DNA of 64,000 nucleotides from Escherichia coli. Its GTDB lineage: Bacteria > Pseudomonadota > Gammaproteobacteria > Enterobacterales > Enterobacteriaceae. The notes beneath the pieces were generated by a model. It had not been told where the DNA came from and searched no databases. It saw only the letters and a program-made list of their open reading frames with translations. The stretch lies in NCBI RefSeq assembly GCF_001677475.2, contig NZ_CP015229.1; one strand, 5' to 3'. Of this stretch, positions 273 through 39,665 are shown one piece after another; positions within the stretch are counted from its first letter, which is position 1; every line of letters starts with the position of its first letter. The translations under genes were made by a program, and so were the position numbers.

Positions 273-1826
273 CTACTTAGATTTACTCATATTAATCAAA
301 GCCATAGTAACTGGAAGCTTATCTCTGTTTTTTAATAACCAGCCATGTCCCCCCAGTACAGAATCAAGTCTTGACAGTGACAGTGAGCACTGCCCCTGAG
401 CTAAAAAATTTTTTATTAATGATAATGAAAACTTATCCCTTTCATCCCAATTGACCCTTTTAACATTACAGCGCCGTGATTCCTTTGGTAAATAAAAATC
501 AAGCCATTGGCTTTCAAATCTGTTTAGCCAGAAAAAACTTGCATAACAATTCGCCCTGACTACTTTTCGAGTCACAGGACCAGTGAGGCCATGCATGAAC
601 CGCAGGATTTTTTGTTTATGACGTCGTCTTAAAGAGTCTCTTTTACATTTTTTACGCCATGAACATAATCCATAAAATGAAGAAATCACCGATGAAACAC
701 TCCCTTCCGATAAGGAGTTTTTCTTTGCTATTGATGCTAAACTAAACCCTCTCACAGCCATGGATTTAATAAGGAACTCAGTTAATATGTTTATTTTAAT
801 GCTACACTTATAATTCTTTACATACTTTTTATGGATTACTCCTTTAATAAAACATCTACTCTTGTTAAGTTCCTTAGCAAGAGAATTAATACTGTTATGT
901 TTTTCACTCAGGAGGCAAAACTGGGCTGTATCATCATCAAAAGCGATGCTCTTTGATTTTTTATGGATATCGGCATGTACTGGCCATGTTATTCTTAACA
1001 AACAATAGCACAGTAACAGATGCTTTGTTGGATGCTGGCATGATTGATTCCTGAGTAAAGGCTCCCAGTAGTGATAATCCGAAATGGATTCAGGCAAAAT
1101 TGCTGAAGAACCCGAATCTAATAACCTACATTTCGCATAAACATGTGAATAAAAAACCCCTTTTTTTATATTTCCTGATACTGATAATAAATTAAGTTGT
1201 TTCAGTATATCCATGTAATCAGGATGATTTGCATCTCCCCTTCGGATCATATTTATAAATTCGTAGCAAAATTTAGCAAAATCGAATTCAAACTCAGTAC
1301 TCAGATGTTCAATATATGAAACCGGGGGCATCAGCCCTTTGCGAATATGTGGCGAAGGAGGAACACAGATGCTTTCAAGTAATATCTGATGTCGATAGCA
1401 GGTCGTAATCCCCCGAAGTTGATGAAGAAGATGCCAGTATGTAACACCATGATGGTACGCATCTTCACGTGCACAAACCGGACAAAATTTTAAAACAGTC
1501 TGTAGCCCGGAGGAGAAATTACTAAGACGGCACAACCGATTTAGTCTGCCCGGTGTCGTTCTCAAATCCATAATTTCTTTGCGGCTGGATGGCAGGGCCC
1601 AGGAAAAAAGAGGGAGCAATGTCTGTTCATACAAGAGTTGCTCTGCACTCTCTGACGTATGAAGAGAAATATCGTTTAATCCGGAACTGAGTATTGGGTG
1701 TACGCTAACATCAGATTTTCCAAAAAGGATTTGTAACATGGTAGAAGGAGACATACCATACACAGTAACTGACCGACATATACGGCTAAACAAGGTTTCA
1801 TCAGGTAAAACAGGAAGTAGAATCAT
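273..1826 (-). CDS. tnsD: Tn7-like target-site selector TnsD/TniQ
   Basis: N-terminus aligns with Tn7 TnsD; CxxC...C..H zinc-finger-like segment (FCPVCAREDAYHHGVTYWH...CYRH). ATG at 1826 has a GAGGTGGG RBS; the ORF-track start at 1844 is a TTG. Confidence 0.8.
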   Translation of the reverse strand: MILLPVLPDETLFSRICRSVTVYGMSPSTMLQILFGKSDVSVHPILSSGLNDISLHTSESAEQLLYEQTLLPLFSWALPSSRKEIMDLRTTPGRLNRLCRLSNFSSGLQTVLKFCPVCAREDAYHHGVTYWHLLHQLRGITTCYRHQILLESICVPPSPHIRKGLMPPVSYIEHLSTEFEFDFAKFCYEFINMIRRGDANHPDYMDILKQLNLLSVSGNIKKGVFYSHVYAKCRLLDSGSSAILPESISDYHYWEPLLRNQSCQHPTKHLLLCYCLLRITWPVHADIHKKSKSIAFDDDTAQFCLLSEKHNSINSLAKELNKSRCFIKGVIHKKYVKNYKCSIKINILTEFLIKSMAVRGFSLASIAKKNSLSEGSVSSVISSFYGLCSWRKKCKRDSLRRRHKQKILRFMHGLTGPVTRKVVRANCYASFFWLNRFESQWLDFYLPKESRRCNVKRVNWDERDKFSLSLIKNFLAQGQCSLSLSRLDSVLGGHGWLLKNRDKLPVTMALINMSKSK

Positions 1827-1868
1827 TCGCCCACCTCTCAGCAACCACTCTGAACAATAAATTCAGTA

Positions 1869-3314
1869 TTACAATTCATTAAGTGGGTCTGTATTTAACA
1901 GACCGCAACGCTGAAGCGATGAGTAGGTTTCGTTGTTATCAGCAGCCCTGCTGATAATACGCTCCCGATCGAAAGATATGATTTTACTTTCGAAATTTTG
2001 CATAGCCTCATCAATTTTTTGTGCAAATTCTTTATGCTGTGGCCTGTCAATATCTCCAGGAATCAGAGCCTTCGCGTGCCTGTCGGCAGTAAAATCCGTT
2101 GAGGCTTCGCCTGCATGAGATACAGAGCAATATTTATCATCATACTCACCCACAGCTCCAGGTATCAAAGCCTCCTGATACTCCTCCGTATGACTGGCGA
2201 GCACCGGTACAGAAGACGACAACACTACACTACTGATCAGTTCATTGCCGCTTCCAATAACTTTTAATTGTGCCCTGCGATAAATCATCTGAGCCAGTCC
2301 GATGTTACCTTTAGATAAAACGAAAAGTTTTTCATTAAGCTCATCACTTAACGGAGTTTCAATATTTGTCCATTGTAATGGCCATAAATAATGAATAAAC
2401 GACTGCCAGTCCTGTGAGTCATACCTGACATTGAGAATATTCATATAACCACCCGATTCCGCTCGTCTGGCAATACGCATTTTTCTGGCCAGTGTTTCAT
2501 CAAAAGGGGGGTTTCCACAAAAAACCATTGATACACCCATTGAATCTACAATTTCATGAAGAAAATCAATGAGTTTATTTTCACCGCCCGTTCTGGAAAA
2601 TTTCAGCCGCTGCATTTCATCAATAACAAGAATACCCAAAAACGATGATTTAATTCTCTGCGCTATCTGCCTCGCCAGAGGACCATTCCTGATCTCTGAT
2701 GTAGTTCGTTCGATGCCGCTAGCATCATCTAACTTTAGAAGAATTTCTTCGCAAAGGTCTCTGACACTGGAGTTGTACGGACAATTAATCTTTAACCACA
2801 CGATTTGCTTGCTTAGCCCGGGAAAAGCACCTTTATAACTACTGTGCTCAATGACCTGGGGAAAGTAGTCCATAATTTGCTCAATCATGGTGGTTTTTCC
2901 GGAGCCACTCATCCCGACTATCGTAATAGTTTCAGCCTGAGACTTAAAATACCCGCTATCTGGCTCTATGTCAGGTCGCTCGTTACCATAGTAATGCAGG
3001 TACTGAACAGTACCACTTTTTAAAGGATTTCGGGCAGCATAACTTTCCCTCAAAGCCCGGTAAATCATTCTGTAAGCTTCGATAAGATTCGTTTGTGGAC
3101 ATCGAAATTTCTTTATCCGATCGACATACTGCTCCCTGATTTTAGCAGGAGCAGTCCAGCGAATATCTTCGTCAATTTCAGGAAAGTAACTCATTTCAAA
3201 AAACACTTCATCATCGGAAAGCGCTTCAGGAAGTGCCTCAATTAAGGGATTGCCCCGATATTCAGGCAAGCCCGGCTCTTTATAAATTGCTGAGACGCTC
3301 CGTAACATATTCAT
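1869..3314 (-). CDS. tnsC: Tn7-like transposition regulator TnsC (AAA+ ATPase)
   Basis: Walker A GMSGSGKTT; blocks matching Tn7 TnsC (YRGNPLIEALPE; LGILVIDEMQRL..SRTGG); ATGA overlap with tnsB stop. Confidence 0.9.
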   Translation of the reverse strand: MNMLRSVSAIYKEPGLPEYRGNPLIEALPEALSDDEVFFEMSYFPEIDEDIRWTAPAKIREQYVDRIKKFRCPQTNLIEAYRMIYRALRESYAARNPLKSGTVQYLHYYGNERPDIEPDSGYFKSQAETITIVGMSGSGKTTMIEQIMDYFPQVIEHSSYKGAFPGLSKQIVWLKINCPYNSSVRDLCEEILLKLDDASGIERTTSEIRNGPLARQIAQRIKSSFLGILVIDEMQRLKFSRTGGENKLIDFLHEIVDSMGVSMVFCGNPPFDETLARKMRIARRAESGGYMNILNVRYDSQDWQSFIHYLWPLQWTNIETPLSDELNEKLFVLSKGNIGLAQMIYRRAQLKVIGSGNELISSVVLSSSVPVLASHTEEYQEALIPGAVGEYDDKYCSVSHAGEASTDFTADRHAKALIPGDIDRPQHKEFAQKIDEAMQNFESKIISFDRERIISRAADNNETYSSLQRCGLLNTDPLNEL

Positions 3315-5437
3315 TTTTCTGCGTCCTCTTGTTTTTTCTTAGCGTTTAACCATCGCTGTTTTTCTTCACGGCCAGGCAAAAGCAGAATATTACTGGATGA
3401 AGGAAGTACAGGTTCATTTTTTTCATTAGGCAGATTTGTACGCCCTAATAGGTCCAGTTCAGCTTTTCTGTTCCGCCTGATATCTTTACCATGCACCCGG
3501 CGGGGATCAGAAATATCGTTCAGGCGTTCAATACCTTGCCTGTTGATTTTATCCTTAACTTTACTATTGTTAAAAACATTCAGTGTGAATGCATTTATTT
3601 CTTTTTGCGTATCTACCCAGTCGGCCATAACATCTGTATCAAGATGAGCTTTACCTTTAAATACATCTCTTTTTTTGAGTAGATAATGCTTTCTGAAGAC
3701 ACTATTTTTATCGAATCTTACGTACAAATAATCTACGCAATTATCATCAATTCTTGCTTCACAGGAGGTTCGTCCGAATACTCTTGCTGCTGAAGCAATG
3801 TCAGGATCGCATTCATAAAATAAATTATTATACTGAATTCCACCGGCTGTAATATTTGCTGTCACGGGGATTAACAAACGAGCAATGACTTCATCTGCTG
3901 TAACGACTCTTCCGCTGAACCGTCCTTGCTTTACGCTAATCATCCAGCTGTTTTTTGGCGAAATAATGAGATCATGTTCAATCAACAATGGATTAATATA
4001 AGCCAACTCCTCATACGTTCTTTGATTATGTGCAAGGATTTCCCGAATCAGCACTGAGGTGACCTCCTGAATCGTTAAACAGGCTCTGGATTGCGGTGTT
4101 GGTTCTCCTTTAACAATTTTGCCTCTTCGCGTTGCTCCTGTAAGCTCATGAATAGCTTCATCATTTAAAATCCCGAAACAACGCTCAACAATACTCTTTC
4201 TGTCCCCTCTGCCAACCGGTGCAAACTCAAGTTTAGTCAGAGGAGTCATCTTATCTTGAGGTTTAAGACCAATCATCTCTCCATTATCGCACATAAGTGT
4301 TAATGGTATATGAGAACAAGGCCATTCATCTTCATTAATAGAAACACCAAATATTCTACAGTATTCTTTTTTTGGCATAAAGCAATTTGCCAACGCTTGC
4401 CGGGCCGCTCGCCAGGAAGCATGATACAAAGAAACATGAAGACCAACAATCATCCTTGAAGCACGATCCACTACTGTATAAATAGTTGGTCGGCCAATAA
4501 CTTTACGCCTGTTTAAGCTTGAAACAAGGTGCACATCAGCTACAGTTGAGTCTATTTCAAAAACATCACCCGGCAATACGGTCGTATTAGCGGCACTCCC
4601 CAGAAGGCCACGCATCTTGAGGGCTATTTCTTTTTTAGAGTTTTTCTTATTTATAGAGAACTCTTTTGAAAACAACTTTCTATTCCAGTAAGTAAATTGT
4701 TTTAAAGAAGGAATGTAGGGAGCCCTGTTTTCAGCGTTTGCTTTCTTTATTTCATCCTTGAAATATAATTCAATGTGTCTTACCAGCGTTTTCTTTATCG
4801 TTTCCCCATGAGTTTTGTAATGAAACCTAGTTAGGGACTTTTTGATGTTTTCAATATCCCCTTCATTAAGGATATAAACTTTCGAACGTATATTGGGTAA
4901 TACTCTGTTTTTCTTTGCATTCCCGAGCTTAACTTCATGTCTGATTCTACTCTTACCTGCAGCACCGCAGTTCGGGTATGCGGGTAGCAAAGCATATATA
5001 TCCTGTCCATGTTTCCAGTAAAGAGTTAGAAGCGTCCTGATTGTACGTTGTGGGATTTGTTTTTTTCTGGAGTACTCTGTTAACAAATGTGATTTTTTAT
5101 GAATCGCATAATCAAATACGAATATTTTATCCTCTACAAGTTCTTTAATAATCTTATAGTTTACATCCCGTCGCTTTCTGTCTTCATTATTTATTTTTCT
5201 CTCATCAATCAACATATATGATGGGGGTGTATATTTCTTATGGGTTATTCTTTGCGAGTCCACACCATATGTAAATTGTGAAAGTGAGAATGGAATTGGT
5301 TTACTCGTTCTTTCTTTTTTTATTTCAAATAAAATCAACAAATCGGTATCTCTGTCAAAATCCAGAACGCGATAAAGCCCATCAGATAGCACGTCACTGT
5401 CGTGAGATTGCCATACTGAATTTCTAATAATATCCAT
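3311..5437 (-). CDS. tnsB: Tn7-like transposase TnsB (DDE/RNase H-fold)
   Basis: 708 aa; core similar to Tn7 TnsB (IGRPTIYTVVDRASRMIVG vs IGRPTLYIVIDVFSRMITG); overlaps tnsA 3' end by 14 nt. Confidence 0.9.
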   Translation of the reverse strand: MDIIRNSVWQSHDSDVLSDGLYRVLDFDRDTDLLILFEIKKERTSKPIPFSLSQFTYGVDSQRITHKKYTPPSYMLIDERKINNEDRKRRDVNYKIIKELVEDKIFVFDYAIHKKSHLLTEYSRKKQIPQRTIRTLLTLYWKHGQDIYALLPAYPNCGAAGKSRIRHEVKLGNAKKNRVLPNIRSKVYILNEGDIENIKKSLTRFHYKTHGETIKKTLVRHIELYFKDEIKKANAENRAPYIPSLKQFTYWNRKLFSKEFSINKKNSKKEIALKMRGLLGSAANTTVLPGDVFEIDSTVADVHLVSSLNRRKVIGRPTIYTVVDRASRMIVGLHVSLYHASWRAARQALANCFMPKKEYCRIFGVSINEDEWPCSHIPLTLMCDNGEMIGLKPQDKMTPLTKLEFAPVGRGDRKSIVERCFGILNDEAIHELTGATRRGKIVKGEPTPQSRACLTIQEVTSVLIREILAHNQRTYEELAYINPLLIEHDLIISPKNSWMISVKQGRFSGRVVTADEVIARLLIPVTANITAGGIQYNNLFYECDPDIASAARVFGRTSCEARIDDNCVDYLYVRFDKNSVFRKHYLLKKRDVFKGKAHLDTDVMADWVDTQKEINAFTLNVFNNSKVKDKINRQGIERLNDISDPRRVHGKDIRRNRKAELDLLGRTNLPNEKNEPVLPSSSNILLLPGREEKQRWLNAKKKQEDAEK

Positions 5438-6266
5438 TTGCGTTCAGCCCTATGCAGTAACCATTGGAAATTATTTTTATCAGACCTGTTTCGAGAATTG
5501 GATAAGATAGATCCACATTTATCATTTTTAACCCAATAATTGCCTGCAATAACATGATTGCTTCTTGTTCATCGACATCAAAGATTGATGAGATCATCGC
5601 GCGTAGTTCCACAATCGGATAAACATCCGGCTTAAGCCTCCATAAAATTTTATCAAGCGGATATTTATCAAAAAACTCAGACCCATTTCTCAGCACCGAG
5701 GTAGCCCAACATATGTTCTGCCCCGTGACATGATTCAGTTCCGAACCAGTATAGATTTGGAACTCAACATCAATCAGTTGCCAAAACATTCTCTCTATCT
5801 CAAGCTTTTCTGCTTCGCGTTTAGGTATGCTTTCGTTTTGCTTTACTGCAATTGCTTTATACCGAAGCCCCCCTCCCGGCATTCTCAGGGTCAGCAAGAA
5901 ATCAGTTGTCATAACATTCAGGACATCGGCTGGTACGCCTCTGACTCCCCTGACAAGCGGGTGCTGCACATCTAAGTGATTGGCTATCTGATGGGTGAGC
6001 AGTAGAGGTATGAGTGGGAATTGTTCGCGGATATCGATCACCAAGTCATTAAACTCAGCCAAGTAGAAAAAGTTACTTTCGACAGAAGAAAAGAAATGGT
6101 GATTCCGAAACGTCTTAAGGCCAAAGACTATCGAACGGTTTCCATGGGATCTAACGTCCTGAGCTCTAAGCCAGGGTTGATAACTTTGCCCATAGCCCAA
6201 CCCTATGCCGTCACCTAGCGCATTTTCATAATCCTGATAGGATTTAAGACGCCTGCCCCTAGCCAT
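5424..6266 (-). CDS. tnsA: Tn7-like transposase subunit TnsA (endonuclease-like)
   Basis: Matches Tn7 TnsA (YQPWLRAQDV...IDIREQFPLIP; KLEIERMFWQ). ATG at 6266 gives the same N-terminal length as Tn7 TnsA; the ORF-track start at 6278 is a GTG. Confidence 0.9.
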   Translation of the reverse strand: MARGRRLKSYQDYENALGDGIGLGYGQSYQPWLRAQDVRSHGNRSIVFGLKTFRNHHFFSSVESNFFYLAEFNDLVIDIREQFPLIPLLLTHQIANHLDVQHPLVRGVRGVPADVLNVMTTDFLLTLRMPGGGLRYKAIAVKQNESIPKREAEKLEIERMFWQLIDVEFQIYTGSELNHVTGQNICWATSVLRNGSEFFDKYPLDKILWRLKPDVYPIVELRAMISSIFDVDEQEAIMLLQAIIGLKMINVDLSYPILETGLIKIISNGYCIGLNANGYY

Positions 6267-6278
6267 GATCGTACCCAC

Positions 6279-6405
6279 AAAACATCATTGATACGTACCT
6301 GCATGAGTGTTTAATAGTCTACAACCCTATAACCACACATATAGTAAGTATACAACATTAGCGTCATTTTTTGAGAGTGGTTACAACTTTAGTGCTTAGG
6401 GCACA
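6279..6405 (-). repeat. Transposon right end: array of imperfect ~20-30 bp direct repeats carrying GTTGT(A) cores (putative TnsB-binding sites), terminus TGT at 6405 or 6385
   Basis: Minus-strand reading from the yhiN stop: AAAGTTGTGCC..AAAGTTGTAACC..AATGTTGTATAC..GGGTTGTAGAC..TTTTGTGGG; analogous to the Tn7-R site organisation. Confidence 0.55.
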
Positions 6406-6408
6406 ACT

Positions 6409-7611
6409 TTATTGTTTTTGAACAGCAATCAAATCCTGCGCACAAGCCCACGCACTCGACCACGCCCACTGGAAATTATAGCCCCCCAGCCAACCGGTGA
6501 CGTCCATCACTTCGCCGATGAAGTACAGCCCAGGCACTTTGCGCGCTTCCATCGTCCGTGAAGAGAGTTCGTTGGTGTCCACGCCGCCGAGCGTCACTTC
6601 GGCAGTGCGATAGCCTTCAGTGCCGTTGGGTTGTACGCGCCAGTCGGTCAATGTGCTAATCAGTGCCTGTTGGTCACGCACGTTGAGCTGTTTTAGCGAG
6701 ACATCCGGGATTTGCCCGAGTTGTTGTAAACGTTCAACCAACCGCTTCGGTAGATGAACCGCCAGTGTGTTTTTCAGGCTCTGATTCGGATGTGCATTAC
6801 GCTGCTCATTCAGGAAGGTTTCGAGGTCCACATCAGGTAGCAGATTGATACTGACAAATTCACCCGGTTGCCAGTAGCTGGAAATTTGCAACACCGCCGG
6901 TCCAGATAAACCGCGGTGGGTGAAGAGTAAGTTCTCACGGAAAACGGTGCCGTTTTCAGCGGTAATCACGGAAGGCACCGCCACGCCCGCCAGCACCTGT
7001 AACTCTTCGAGCAACGGTTTATGCAGAGTGAATGGCACCAGGCCCGCGCGGGTCGGCAGCACGTTGAGGCCAAATTGTTCGGCAATCTTATAACCAAACG
7101 GCGACGCGCCCAGCCCTGGCATTGACAGTCCACCGGTCGCGATGACCAGCTTTTCGCAACCGACAGTCATGCCGTTCAGTTCAAGCGTGAAGCCTGTTTC
7201 ATCCTTCGCCACACTCAGCACTTCGCTACGCAATCTGAAGGTCACATTGCCCTTCTCGCACTCATCCACCAGCATGTCGACAATCTGCTGCGCGGAGTCA
7301 TCGCAGAAGAGTTGTCCTAACGTTTTCTCGTGCCAGGCGATGCCGTGTTTATTGACCAGATCAATGAAATCCCACTGGGTAAAACGCGCGAGTGCAGATT
7401 TACAAAAATGCGGATTCTGGCTCAGATAAGCGCCCGGTTCGACATAAAGGTTGGTAAAGTTGCAGCGCCCACCGCCAGACATGAGGATTTTGCGCCCTGG
7501 TTTTTTACCATTATCGATCAGCAGAACCCGGCGTCCTGCCTGACCTGCCAGCGCAGAACAGAACATACCCGCCGCACCAGCGCCTATAATAATGGCATCA
7601 AACCTTTCCAC
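6409..7611 (-). CDS. yhiN: NAD(FAD)-utilising dehydrogenase YhiN (flavoprotein, HI0933 family)
   Basis: 400 aa, MERFDAIIIGAGAAG... dinucleotide-binding motif; GTG start with GGAG RBS. Confidence 0.9.
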   Translation of the reverse strand: MERFDAIIIGAGAAGMFCSALAGQAGRRVLLIDNGKKPGRKILMSGGGRCNFTNLYVEPGAYLSQNPHFCKSALARFTQWDFIDLVNKHGIAWHEKTLGQLFCDDSAQQIVDMLVDECEKGNVTFRLRSEVLSVAKDETGFTLELNGMTVGCEKLVIATGGLSMPGLGASPFGYKIAEQFGLNVLPTRAGLVPFTLHKPLLEELQVLAGVAVPSVITAENGTVFRENLLFTHRGLSGPAVLQISSYWQPGEFVSINLLPDVDLETFLNEQRNAHPNQSLKNTLAVHLPKRLVERLQQLGQIPDVSLKQLNVRDQQALISTLTDWRVQPNGTEGYRTAEVTLGGVDTNELSSRTMEARKVPGLYFIGEVMDVTGWLGGYNFQWAWSSAWACAQDLIAVQKQ

Positions 7612-7842: not shown

Positions 7843-9342
7843 ATGCTACATTTGTTTGCTGGCCTGGATTTGCATACCGGGCTGTTATTATTGCTTGCAC
7901 TGGCTTTTGTGCTGTTCTACGAAGCCATCAATGGTTTCCATGACACAGCCAACGCCGTGGCAACCGTTATCTATACCCGCGCGATGCGTTCTCAGCTCGC
8001 CGTGGTTATGGCGGCGGTGTTCAACTTTTTGGGTGTTTTGCTGGGTGGTCTGAGTGTTGCCTATGCCATTGTGCATATGCTGCCGACGGATCTGCTGCTT
8101 AATATGGGATCGTCTCATGGCCTTGCCATGGTGTTCTCTATGTTGCTGGCGGCGATTATCTGGAACCTGGGTACCTGGTACTTTGGTTTACCTGCATCCA
8201 GCTCTCATACGCTGATTGGCGCGATCATCGGGATTGGTTTAACCAATGCGTTGATGACCGGGACGTCAGTGGTGGATGCACTCAATATCCCGAAAGTATT
8301 AAGTATTTTCGGTTCTCTGATCGTTTCCCCTATTGTCGGCCTGGTGTTTGCTGGCGGTCTGATTTTCTTGCTGCGTCGCTACTGGAGCGGCACCAAGAAA
8401 CGCGCCCGTATCCACCTGACCCCAGCGGAGCGTGAAAAGAAAGACGGCAAGAAAAAGCCGCCGTTCTGGACGCGTATTGCGCTGATCCTTTCCGCTATCG
8501 GCGTGGCGTTTTCGCACGGCGCAAACGATGGTCAGAAAGGCATTGGTCTGGTTATGTTGGTATTGATTGGCGTCGCACCAGCAGGCTTCGTGGTGAACAT
8601 GAATGCCACTGGCTACGAAATCACCCGTACCCGTGATGCCATCAACAACGTGGAAGCTTACTTTGAGCAGCACCCTGCGCTGCTGAAACAGGCTACCGGT
8701 GCTGATCAGTTAGTACCGGCTCCGGAAGCTGGCGCAACGCAACCTGCGGAGTTCCATTGCCATCCGTCGAATACCATTAACGCGCTCAACCGCCTGAAAG
8801 GCATGTTGACTACCGATGTGGAAAGCTACGACAAGCTGTCGCTTGATCAACGTAGCCAGATGCGCCGCATTATGCTGTGCGTTTCTGACACTATCGACAA
8901 AGTGGTGAAGATGCCTGGCGTGAGTGCAGACGATCAGCGCCTGTTGAAGAAACTGAAGTCCGACATGCTTAGCACCATCGAGTATGCGCCGGTGTGGATC
9001 ATCATGGCGGTCGCGCTGGCGTTAGGTATCGGTACGATGATTGGCTGGCGTCGTGTGGCAACGACTATCGGTGAGAAAATCGGTAAGAAAGGCATGACCT
9101 ACGCTCAGGGGATGTCTGCCCAGATGACGGCGGCAGTGTCCATCGGCCTGGCGAGTTATACCGGGATGCCGGTTTCCACCACTCACGTACTCTCCTCTTC
9201 TGTCGCGGGGACGATGGTGGTAGATGGCGGCGGCTTACAGCGTAAAACCGTGACCAGTATTCTGATGGCCTGGGTGTTTACCCTTCCGGCTGCGGTACTG
9301 CTTTCCGGCGGGCTGTACTGGCTCTCCTTGCAGTTCCTGTAA
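7843..9342 (+). CDS. pitA: Low-affinity inorganic phosphate transporter PitA
   Basis: 499 aa, [18 protein letters not shown]..., PiT family. Confidence 0.95.
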
Positions 9343-23944: not shown

Positions 23945-24190
23945 TATTGATTATTAGCACTTTATAATCATTGAATAAAAATAGATTTTATGTAATTTTA
24001 AAACAAAGGGTTATATTATGGGGCGATGGATACTCATGCCACGCCCCAAAATAACGGAATTGAACTGAATCGAAGGGATATAAACATCAGACAGGTTTAC
24101 GTTACTATCAGGCATATCGCCTCAGAATCAGATGAAAACTATAAAGAAATATCTATTATGGCTTTAATATTTGTTGATAAGGATAGTAAC

Positions 24191-38483: not shown

Positions 38484-39641
38484 ATGAACAGAAGAAGAAA
38501 GCTGTTAATACCGTTGTTATTCTGCGGCGCGATGCTCACCGCCTGCGATGACAAATCGGCGGAAAACGCCGCCGCCATGACGCCTGAGGTCGGTGTCGTC
38601 ACACTCTCCCCCGGTTCGGTCAATGTATTGAGCGAATTGCCCGGTAGAACCGTTCCTTATGAAGTTGCCGAGATACGTCCCCAGGTGGGCGGTATTATCA
38701 TTAAACGCAACTTTATCGAAGGCGATAAAGTGAACCAGGGCGATTCGCTGTATCAGATTGATCCTGCACCTTTACAGGCCGAGCTGAACTCCGCCAAAGG
38801 CACGCTGGCGAAAGCGCTCTCTACCGCCAGCAATGCCCGCATCACCTTTAACCGCCAGGCATCGTTGCTGAAGACCAACTACGTTAGCCGTCAGGATTAC
38901 GACACCGCGCGCACCCAGTTGAATGAAGCAGAAGCCAATGTCACCGTCGCCAAAGCGGCTGTTGAACAGGCGACTATCAACCTGCAATACGCAAATGTCA
39001 CCTCGCCGATTACGGGCGTCAGCGGGAAATCGTCGGTGACCGTCGGCGCACTCGTTACCGCTAATCAGGCAGATTCGCTGGTTACCGTACAACGTCTGGA
39101 CCCGATTTATGTCGATCTCACGCAGTCGGTGCAGGATTTCTTGCGCATGAAAGAAGAGGTCGCCAGTGGGCAAATCAAACAGGTTCAGGGCAGTACGCCA
39201 GTACAGCTCAATCTGGAAAATGGTAAACGTTACAGCCAGACCGGCACGCTGAAATTCTCCGACCCAACGGTAGATGAAACCACGGGCTCCGTGACGTTAC
39301 GGGCGATTTTCCCCAACCCAAATGGTGACTTGCTGCCTGGCATGTATGTCACGGCATTAGTGGATGAAGGTAGCCGCCAGAATGTATTACTGGTGCCGCA
39401 GGAAGGCGTCACCCACAACGCCCAGGGTAAAGCAACGGCGCTCATTCTGGATAAAGACGATGTTGTGCAGCTACGCGAAATTGAAGCCAGCAAAGCCATC
39501 GGCGACCAGTGGGTCGTCACCTCTGGCTTGCAGGCTGGCGATCGGGTGATCGTTTCCGGTTTGCAACGCATTCGTCCGGGTATCAAAGCACGAGCAATTT
39601 CCTCCAGCCAGGAAAACGCCAGCACCGAATCGAAACAATAA
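38484..39641 (+). CDS. mdtE: RND efflux periplasmic adaptor MdtE
   Basis: 385 aa; lipoprotein signal LTAC. Confidence 0.95.
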   Translation: MNRRRKLLIPLLFCGAMLTACDDKSAENAAAMTPEVGVVTLSPGSVNVLSELPGRTVPYEVAEIRPQVGGIIIKRNFIEGDKVNQGDSLYQIDPAPLQAELNSAKGTLAKALSTASNARITFNRQASLLKTNYVSRQDYDTARTQLNEAEANVTVAKAAVEQATINLQYANVTSPITGVSGKSSVTVGALVTANQADSLVTVQRLDPIYVDLTQSVQDFLRMKEEVASGQIKQVQGSTPVQLNLENGKRYSQTGTLKFSDPTVDETTGSVTLRAIFPNPNGDLLPGMYVTALVDEGSRQNVLLVPQEGVTHNAQGKATALILDKDDVVQLREIEASKAIGDQWVVTSGLQAGDRVIVSGLQRIRPGIKARAISSSQENASTESKQ

Positions 39642-39665
39642 CGTTGCAGGCTTAAGGGGACTTTC

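Follow-up and report, generated by a model that had tools for sequence, protein, structure and literature searches.

The repeats between yhiN and the transposition gene tnsA in Escherichia coli NZ_CP015229.1 raise the question of where a mobile element stops and where the host gene begins. The window analyzed here is the whole stretch of 64,000 nucleotides from this contig, and positions are counted from its first letter. A first-pass annotation had taken the interval 6279-6411 as the right end of a Tn7-like element whose terminus lay just past the yhiN stop codon. The repeats it described are real and its comparison with the right end of Tn7 (Tn7-R) was right in kind, but the termini it proposed were wrong, because the end lies at 6424 and the interval was drawn too short. 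We are highly confident that positions 6267-6424 on the minus strand, which extend from the terminus as far as the base preceding the tnsA ATG, form the right end, on the tnsA side, of a Tn7-like transposon belonging to the Tn6230 family and inserted at the 3' attachment site of yhiN. This reading includes the minus-strand layout of the end, an array of putative TnsB sites and a model of Tn7-type, TnsD-directed insertion; the TnsB and TnsD contacts are predictions from homology and conservation. The segment is absent from empty sites, is about 89-90% identical to Tn6230-type right ends, and is 100% identical to the copy on plasmid NZ_CP039559.1.

Four transposition genes adjoin this end, all on the minus strand. 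TnsA (5424..6266) matched the Pfam Tn7_TnsA-like_N family (E = 1.3e-14) and the Tn7 TnsA structure 1t0f (E = 8e-30). TnsB, the DDE transposase (3311..5437), was not recognised by Pfam and was identified instead by a PDB sequence search, in which it aligned with the Tn7 TnsB structure 7pik over residues 8-659, nearly the full length (E = 1.4e-46). The AAA+ ATPase TnsC (1869..3314) matched the Tn7 TnsC structure 7mbw (E = 4e-39), and the TniQ-family target selector TnsD (273..1844) matched Pfam TniQ (5e-20), Pfam TnsD (5e-15) and the Tn7 TnsD structure 8glu_X (E = 4e-5). NCBIfam returned no useful matches for the four Tns proteins. The D-D-E triad of TnsB and the E/D/K residues of TnsA align with those of Tn7: the window residues are identical at positions D273/D361/E396 and E63/D114/K132, respectively, which we take to be the catalytic residues of Tn7. 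The heteromeric transposase is thus encoded beside the right end with these residues intact. A scan of our genome collection with TnsA gave a single locus, in Enterobacter asburiae; wider relatives were gathered through TnsD homologues and their contigs, two of which (L016 and L019) stop short of the right end.

To locate the terminus, empty and occupied sites were compared. In K-12-like genomes and in strain 103, whose yhiN is uninterrupted, homology to the window starts only at 6425. The empty site sequence is ...GATTTGATTGCAGCAAAGTCGTCCTGA, and it reads GATTTGATTGCAGCAAAG where an occupied genome has ATTGC on both sides. Both junctions can be seen in NZ_CP045712.1 (locus L003), which is 98.9% identical to the window: the right junction is GATTTGATTGC|TGTTCAAAAACAATAAAGTTGTGCCC... 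and the left junction is ...GGATACAACTTTATTGGTTCTACACA|ATTGCAGCGAAGTCGTCCTGA. The left end of L003 finishes with ...ACA at 24065, and empty-site homology resumes exactly at ATTGC, at L003 24066. The five-base duplication therefore occupies 6425-6429, where the yhiN-side copy (ATTGC on the minus strand, gcaat on the plus strand) is host DNA, and the right terminus is 6424, with the terminal 5'-TGT at 6422..6424. On the minus strand the end of the element has the sequence 5'-TGTTCAAAAACAATAAAGTTGTGCCC. The matching inverted terminus that the first-pass annotation had proposed to seek was thus found in a related genome. The left end of the window's own copy lies outside the window and was read from relatives that are 98.9-100% identical at the right end.

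Other copies agree with this terminus. Six further right ends were aligned. Two of them are chromosomal and join yhiN at the same point; the other four, on plasmids and in different surroundings, retain 6406-6424 and diverge exactly after ...ACA at 6424. The copy on the Salmonella IncHI1B plasmid NZ_CP039559.1 (L011), whose ends are 100% identical, is flanked on both sides by CCACC. The ends have the form expected of a Tn7-like element, 5'-TGT...ACA-3' with short terminal inverted repeats (right end TGTTCAAAAACAATAAAGTTGT, left end TGTGTAGAACCAATAAAGTTGT), and a 5-bp target-site duplication, ATTGC in the chromosome and CCACC in the plasmid. The two ends share the TGT tip and AATAAAGTTGT at offsets 12-22. 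Each carries several direct copies of a motif of about 20 bp, inverted between the ends and unequal in number and spacing. The published inverted repeats of the Tn6230 subfamily, TGTCCGAAGACAATAAAGTTGT and TGTACACAGACATTAAAGTTGT, are arranged alike: their terminal TGT lies 14 nt outside AAAGTTGT (PMC13049778).

A 1-kb query across the junction showed how common this arrangement is. It matched 5,422 of 5,426 complete E. coli genomes, and in most of those the match begins at query positions 523-531, which correspond to window 6422-6430. At least 80% of the query was covered in 646 of the 5,426, representing such an end joined to yhiN; rows sampled from these 646 (H1-H4) align across the joint in one piece. 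The interval 6279-6411 is accordingly missing from about 88% of complete E. coli genomes, and the chimeric YhiN C-terminus described below is present in about 12%. Such right ends also occur on hundreds of plasmids in other contexts.

These alignments bear on several other explanations of the junction. The termini proposed earlier placed the end at the TGT of one of two AAAGT|TGT copies (6405 or 6385), past an intact host stop codon and 3 or 23 bp from it, the larger distance resembling the Tn7/glmS arrangement. AAAGTTGT does occur twice, 20 bp apart, and Tn7 ends do start with TGT; yet in empty sites nothing up to 6424 is present and the gene ends in other codons, with TGA as its stop, both duplications border 6424, plasmid copies keep 6406-6424, and the published Tn6230 repeats begin 14 nt outside AAAGTTGT. 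Neither AAAGT copy is host DNA, since both lie within the element. The stop codon begins 13 nt within the element, and the real gap in Tn7 at glmS is 25 nt. Termini at 6405 and 6385 were rejected on the empty-site and plasmid alignments, and we give them practically no credence. We consider it just as implausible that the interval is immobile DNA native to the 3' side of yhiN, its repeats being regulatory or part of a terminator. A hairpin resembling a terminator was noted at 6392-6404, but the whole of 6279-6411 is missing from empty sites and from most genomes and turns up on the plasmids counted above, so that the empty-site and plasmid alignments refute this reading as well. An integrase-type island that recombined in the 3' part of yhiN, bringing along a copy of the gene end to restore it, would account for the open reading frame returning to exactly 400 aa, and tyrosine recombinase genes are indeed found in the cargo of the related L003. 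However, the tails VQKQ and VRGQ are not homologous to the native AKSS, the junctions consist of a 5-bp duplication and TGT...ACA ends with no shared att core, a plasmid copy has the unrelated duplication CCACC, and tnsABCD adjoin the end. An island of this type is very unlikely.

With the Tn7-like terminus at 6424, the element ends inside the yhiN reading frame. By the RefSeq annotation of matching genomes, the 400-aa yhiN ORF as read in the window spans 6409-7611 on the minus strand, of which 6425..7611 lies outside the element; beyond it, pitA is annotated at 7843-9342. The last four yhiN codons and the TAA are therefore transposon DNA. The transposon-encoded tail (6409..6424, minus strand), identified by comparing C-termini, reads T-GTT-CAA-AAA-CAA-TAA and gives ...A-VQKQ. 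The YhiN proteins end ...DLIAAKSS in K-12, ...DLIAVQKQ in the window and ...DLIAVRGQ in Tn6230-occupied genomes, and all are 400 aa long. The TAA at 6409-6411 was thus rightly named as the stop of the 400-aa ORF in the window, but it is not host DNA; it falls inside the first predicted TnsB site (CAATAAAG). Since insertion takes place 13 nt short of the native stop TGA in E. coli, as it does in Enterobacter, the element replaces the last four codons and the TAA in its first TnsB-type site restores the length. One might suspect that the enteric right end acts as a selected patch for yhiN, its in-frame TAA keeping the native length while four residues are changed, an idea we hold to be rather improbable.

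The array of sites in this end was examined on the minus strand. AAAGTTGT is present at 6403-6410 and 6383-6390, AATGTTGTATAC at 6348-6359, GGGTTGTAGAC at 6317-6327 and TTTTGTGGG at 6274-6282, all at the places reported in the first-pass annotation, and a repeat search recovered direct repeats spaced by 20, 31 and 31 bp (families D2, D4 and D5). AAAGTTGT supplies the core of the first two predicted sites and is not the cut site. As an 8-mer it is found 6 times in the whole window where 2.6 occurrences are expected, and a count of 6 was attained in 8 of 100 shuffles; this count is not significant alone, so a matrix test was used instead. A 20-nt matrix was built from four left-end sites, taken from other genomes only, and scanned over both strands, about 128,000 window positions. 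It ranked 6398-6417 first, 6378-6397 second and 6347-6366 fourth, on one strand and within 70 nt, making the array significant. Together with the adjoining tnsABCD genes, these ranks uphold the proposal of a Tn7-R-like, TnsB-type array beside tnsA at yhiN.

Three sites are predicted from these ranks. R1 (AAACAATAAAGTTGTGCCCT, 6398..6417, offset 10 from the terminus) contains ACAATAAAGT at the same offset as in Tn7-R and is conserved in six diverged elements. R2 (AAGCACTAAAGTTGTAACCA, 6378..6397, offset 30) includes a 17-nt site (offsets 30-46) that is identical in the Tn6230 lineage, and its position is conserved in Vibrio, Shewanella and marine relatives; the position of R3 (TGACGCTAATGTTGTATACT, 6347..6366, offset 61) is likewise conserved in relatives. 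A fourth site, R4 (TGGTTATAGGGTTGTAGACT, 6316..6335, offset 92), is weak: it keeps the 31-bp spacing, ranks 101st, and has its core changed from GTTGT to GTTGG in the Tn6230 lineage, and no counterpart was found in the distant relatives in an alignment of six yhiN-associated elements. The fifth repeat, R5 (TTTTGTGGG, site 6274-6291), fell outside the top 400 of the matrix and is not conserved in the Tn6230 lineage. Of the five repeats listed earlier, three are therefore well supported, R4 is doubtful and R5 is unsupported. It could be argued that all five are functional, R4 and R5 included, since R4 holds its spacing, Tn7-R has four sites and the end of the window's element is about 31 nt longer than in Vibrio relatives; with the rank and mutated core of R4, and with R5 unconserved and only 8 nt from the tnsA ATG, we regard this as unlikely.

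The sites follow the consensus nnA(A/C)TAA(A/T)GTTGTnnCC at right-end offsets 10, 30, 61 and possibly 92, with six variable bases after the TGT, and the left end has three such sites, inverted, at offsets 10, 41 and 79. In an enteric comparison covering two close lineages, 4 of 68 columns vary inside R1-R4 between the window and the Tn6230 lineage, as against 32 of 90 outside them (about 19 of 90 by a hand count without one rearranged plasmid copy). The six-element alignment is wider (E. coli, Enterobacter, two Vibrio, Shewanella and a marine contig; TnsB about 44% and TnsD 32-35% identical), and in it the TGT, ACAAT(A/T)(A/T)AGTT at offset 10, and sites at about 30 and 61-63 stay in register. 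Within the right end, a promoter scan found no minus-strand sigma-70-like promoter for tnsA. The hairpin mentioned above, GTGCTTAGGGCAC at 6392-6404 on the plus strand between R1 and R2, is partly variable in Tn6230 (GGGC to GTGT) and is thus probably a chance feature. The matrix match ranked third, AAACAATAACGTTGCAGGCT at 39633-39652 on the plus strand (score 14.9), is isolated, with no neighboring sites or TGT terminus context, so it too is likely due to chance.

The position of the insertion relative to yhiN is informative about targeting. The sequence TTCCA, which encodes Phe-Gln in a conserved YhiN motif, lies 50-52 nt from the terminus in six taxa, irrespective of the position of the stop codon. 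The stop begins 13 nt within the element in E. coli and Enterobacter, and 6-7 nt ahead of the terminus in Vibrio, Shewanella and the marine contig. Enterobacter shares the E. coli insertion register, and the others fall within 50-52 nt. The duplicated sequence varies by host, being GCCGA, for example, in Enterobacter. A constant distance combined with a host-variable duplication indicates that the insertion point is measured from conserved upstream coding DNA, which fits TnsD-directed insertion. From this distance, we infer a TnsD recognition region at 6440..6500 on the minus strand, in the 3' coding part of yhiN, which includes GGTTGGCTGGGGGGCTATAATTTCCAGTGGGCGTGG and TTCCA at 6470-6474. Protein-coding constraint alone can explain the conservation of this region. 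The suggestion that TnsD recognizes the last yhiN codons was right only in outline: since the last four belong to the transposon, any recognition sequence has to sit upstream of them, within the coding sequence.

By homology to Tn7, we propose that TnsD would bind the conserved upstream yhiN coding sequence and recruit TnsC. TnsC would then direct the TnsA and TnsB transposase, assembled on the end sites, to insert the element about 50 nt downstream of the TTCCA codons. The right end would thereby face yhiN, and 5 bp (ATTGC, 6425-6429) would be duplicated. In Tn7 the distance from the TnsD anchor to the insertion point is shorter than about 50 nt. Were the enteric right end a selected patch for yhiN, which we hold to be rather improbable, the Tn6230 family would tolerate, or have adapted to, insertion within an ORF rather than downstream of it, and the constant spacing of about 50 nt would set the TnsD anchor further out than in Tn7, making the targeting step of Tn6230 directly testable. 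The 50-52 nt rule is a pointer to where the TnsD site should be sought. A review lists Tn6230 as targeting yhiN with "molecular details unknown" (PMC11406308).

The element at yhiN is of an already known kind, the Tn6230 family, at its usual E. coli site. Tn6230 is a Tn7-like element with sil/pco cargo and yhiN as attachment site, a description credited to Peters et al. (2014) in PMC11406308, PMC10121019 and PMC13049778. Its targeting of yhiN is stated in PMC11406308 and PMC10121019, it occupies E. coli hotspot #3 (PMC10121019), and the islands have been described, in genome annotations as well as in papers, as lying "between yhiN and yhiM" (PMC8417528, PMC10121019). The window's element shares with Tn6230 the attachment site, the fixed position and orientation of insertion at the yhiN 3' end, the ATTGC duplication, the tnsABCD order, the end layout TGTnnnnnnACA(A/T)TAAAGTTGT and closely related transposition proteins and ends (right end about 89-90%). 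It differs from Tn6230 in the six bases after the TGT and in its proteins: against the sil/pco element of strain 0H18, TnsA is 87.5%, TnsB 80.2% and TnsC 80.7% identical at the amino acid level, and TnsD is 66% identical to the common type. It also differs in cargo, as the closest complete copy of the window lineage has a tibA adhesin cluster instead of sil/pco. These comparisons make the window's element a sister lineage to the sil/pco Tn6230 rather than Tn6230 itself. The paper on pMG101 placed a Tn7/sil/pco element between yhiN and yhiM at a CCCGC site of the attTn7 (glmS) type (PMC8417528). In contrast, the sil/pco copies that we examined have ATTGC at the left junction (L012) and border on it again at the right junction (L004), which lies within the yhiN ORF.

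The window TnsD (273-1844), at 66% identity to the common Tn6230-type TnsD (P0002), stands apart from TnsA, TnsB and TnsC at 80-88%, and both lineages use the same ATTGC position. Either divergence has been faster in the target selector than in the other proteins, or the element has a mosaic origin. In the sil/pco Tn6230 of E. coli 0H18 (L022 6061-11194), tnsD is split by an IS3-family element carrying a group II intron (ltrA), and this copy has probably lost yhiN-directed mobility.

Compared with Tn7 itself, the window's element has homologous TnsA, TnsB, TnsC and TnsD, TGT...ACA ends, a 5-bp duplication, ACAATAAAGT at right-end offset 10-19, multiple sites that are more closely spaced at the right end than at the left, and a right end facing the target gene. 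Unlike Tn7, which at glmS leaves the ORF intact (TAA, then 25 nt including the GCGGG duplication, then TGTGGGCGGACAATAAAGTCTTAAACTGAA...), it goes in 13 nt short of the native yhiN stop and changes four codons. The Tn7 sites lie at offsets 10, 31, 51 and 72 in the right end (four, adjacent) and 10, 74 and 130 in the left end (three), so that right-end spacing is about 21/20/21 bp in Tn7 and 20/31/31 bp here. TnsB and TnsD are 27.5% and 26% identical, respectively, to those of Tn7, and tnsE was not seen beside tnsD in related copies of the window's element. The Vibrio, Shewanella and marine Tn7-like elements, such as that of Vibrio cidicii (PMC12671221), adjoin yhiN in the same orientation with the terminus 50-52 nt from TTCCA and three right-end sites at matching offsets. 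They differ in the site core (AAAGTTTG), in TnsD (32-35% identical) and in the stop codon, which lies 3-4 nt before the terminus; the YhiN tail is shorter in these hosts, so the stop precedes the terminus and the ORF is untouched. The right end of the Vibrio relatives is about 31 nt shorter.

Nothing here should surprise a Tn7 specialist, and the main value is in annotation: a corrected junction and a 50-nt spacing rule. To delimit the cargo islands of such elements, with their metal-resistance, adhesin and defence genes, and to build mini-transposons, one has to know the exact terminus, the duplication and the three conserved end sites. The most similar complete copy of the lineage (L003 7687-24065, E. 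coli FHI_NMBU_11, about 22.5 kb) carries the tibA autotransporter adhesin with its heptosyltransferase, and tyrosine invertase and recombinase genes, with no metal resistance. An IS3-family element sits about 102 nt inside its left terminus (L003 about 23946-23963), just past the third left-end site, and is also found in NZ_CP039559.1 (L011). The cargo next to tnsD varies widely in the Vibrio and metagenome relatives (L014, L018, L019 and L020), where it includes Cus-like RND metal efflux, type I restriction-modification, a HamA/helicase pair (Hachiman-like) and AAA_15/ABC-type ATPases.
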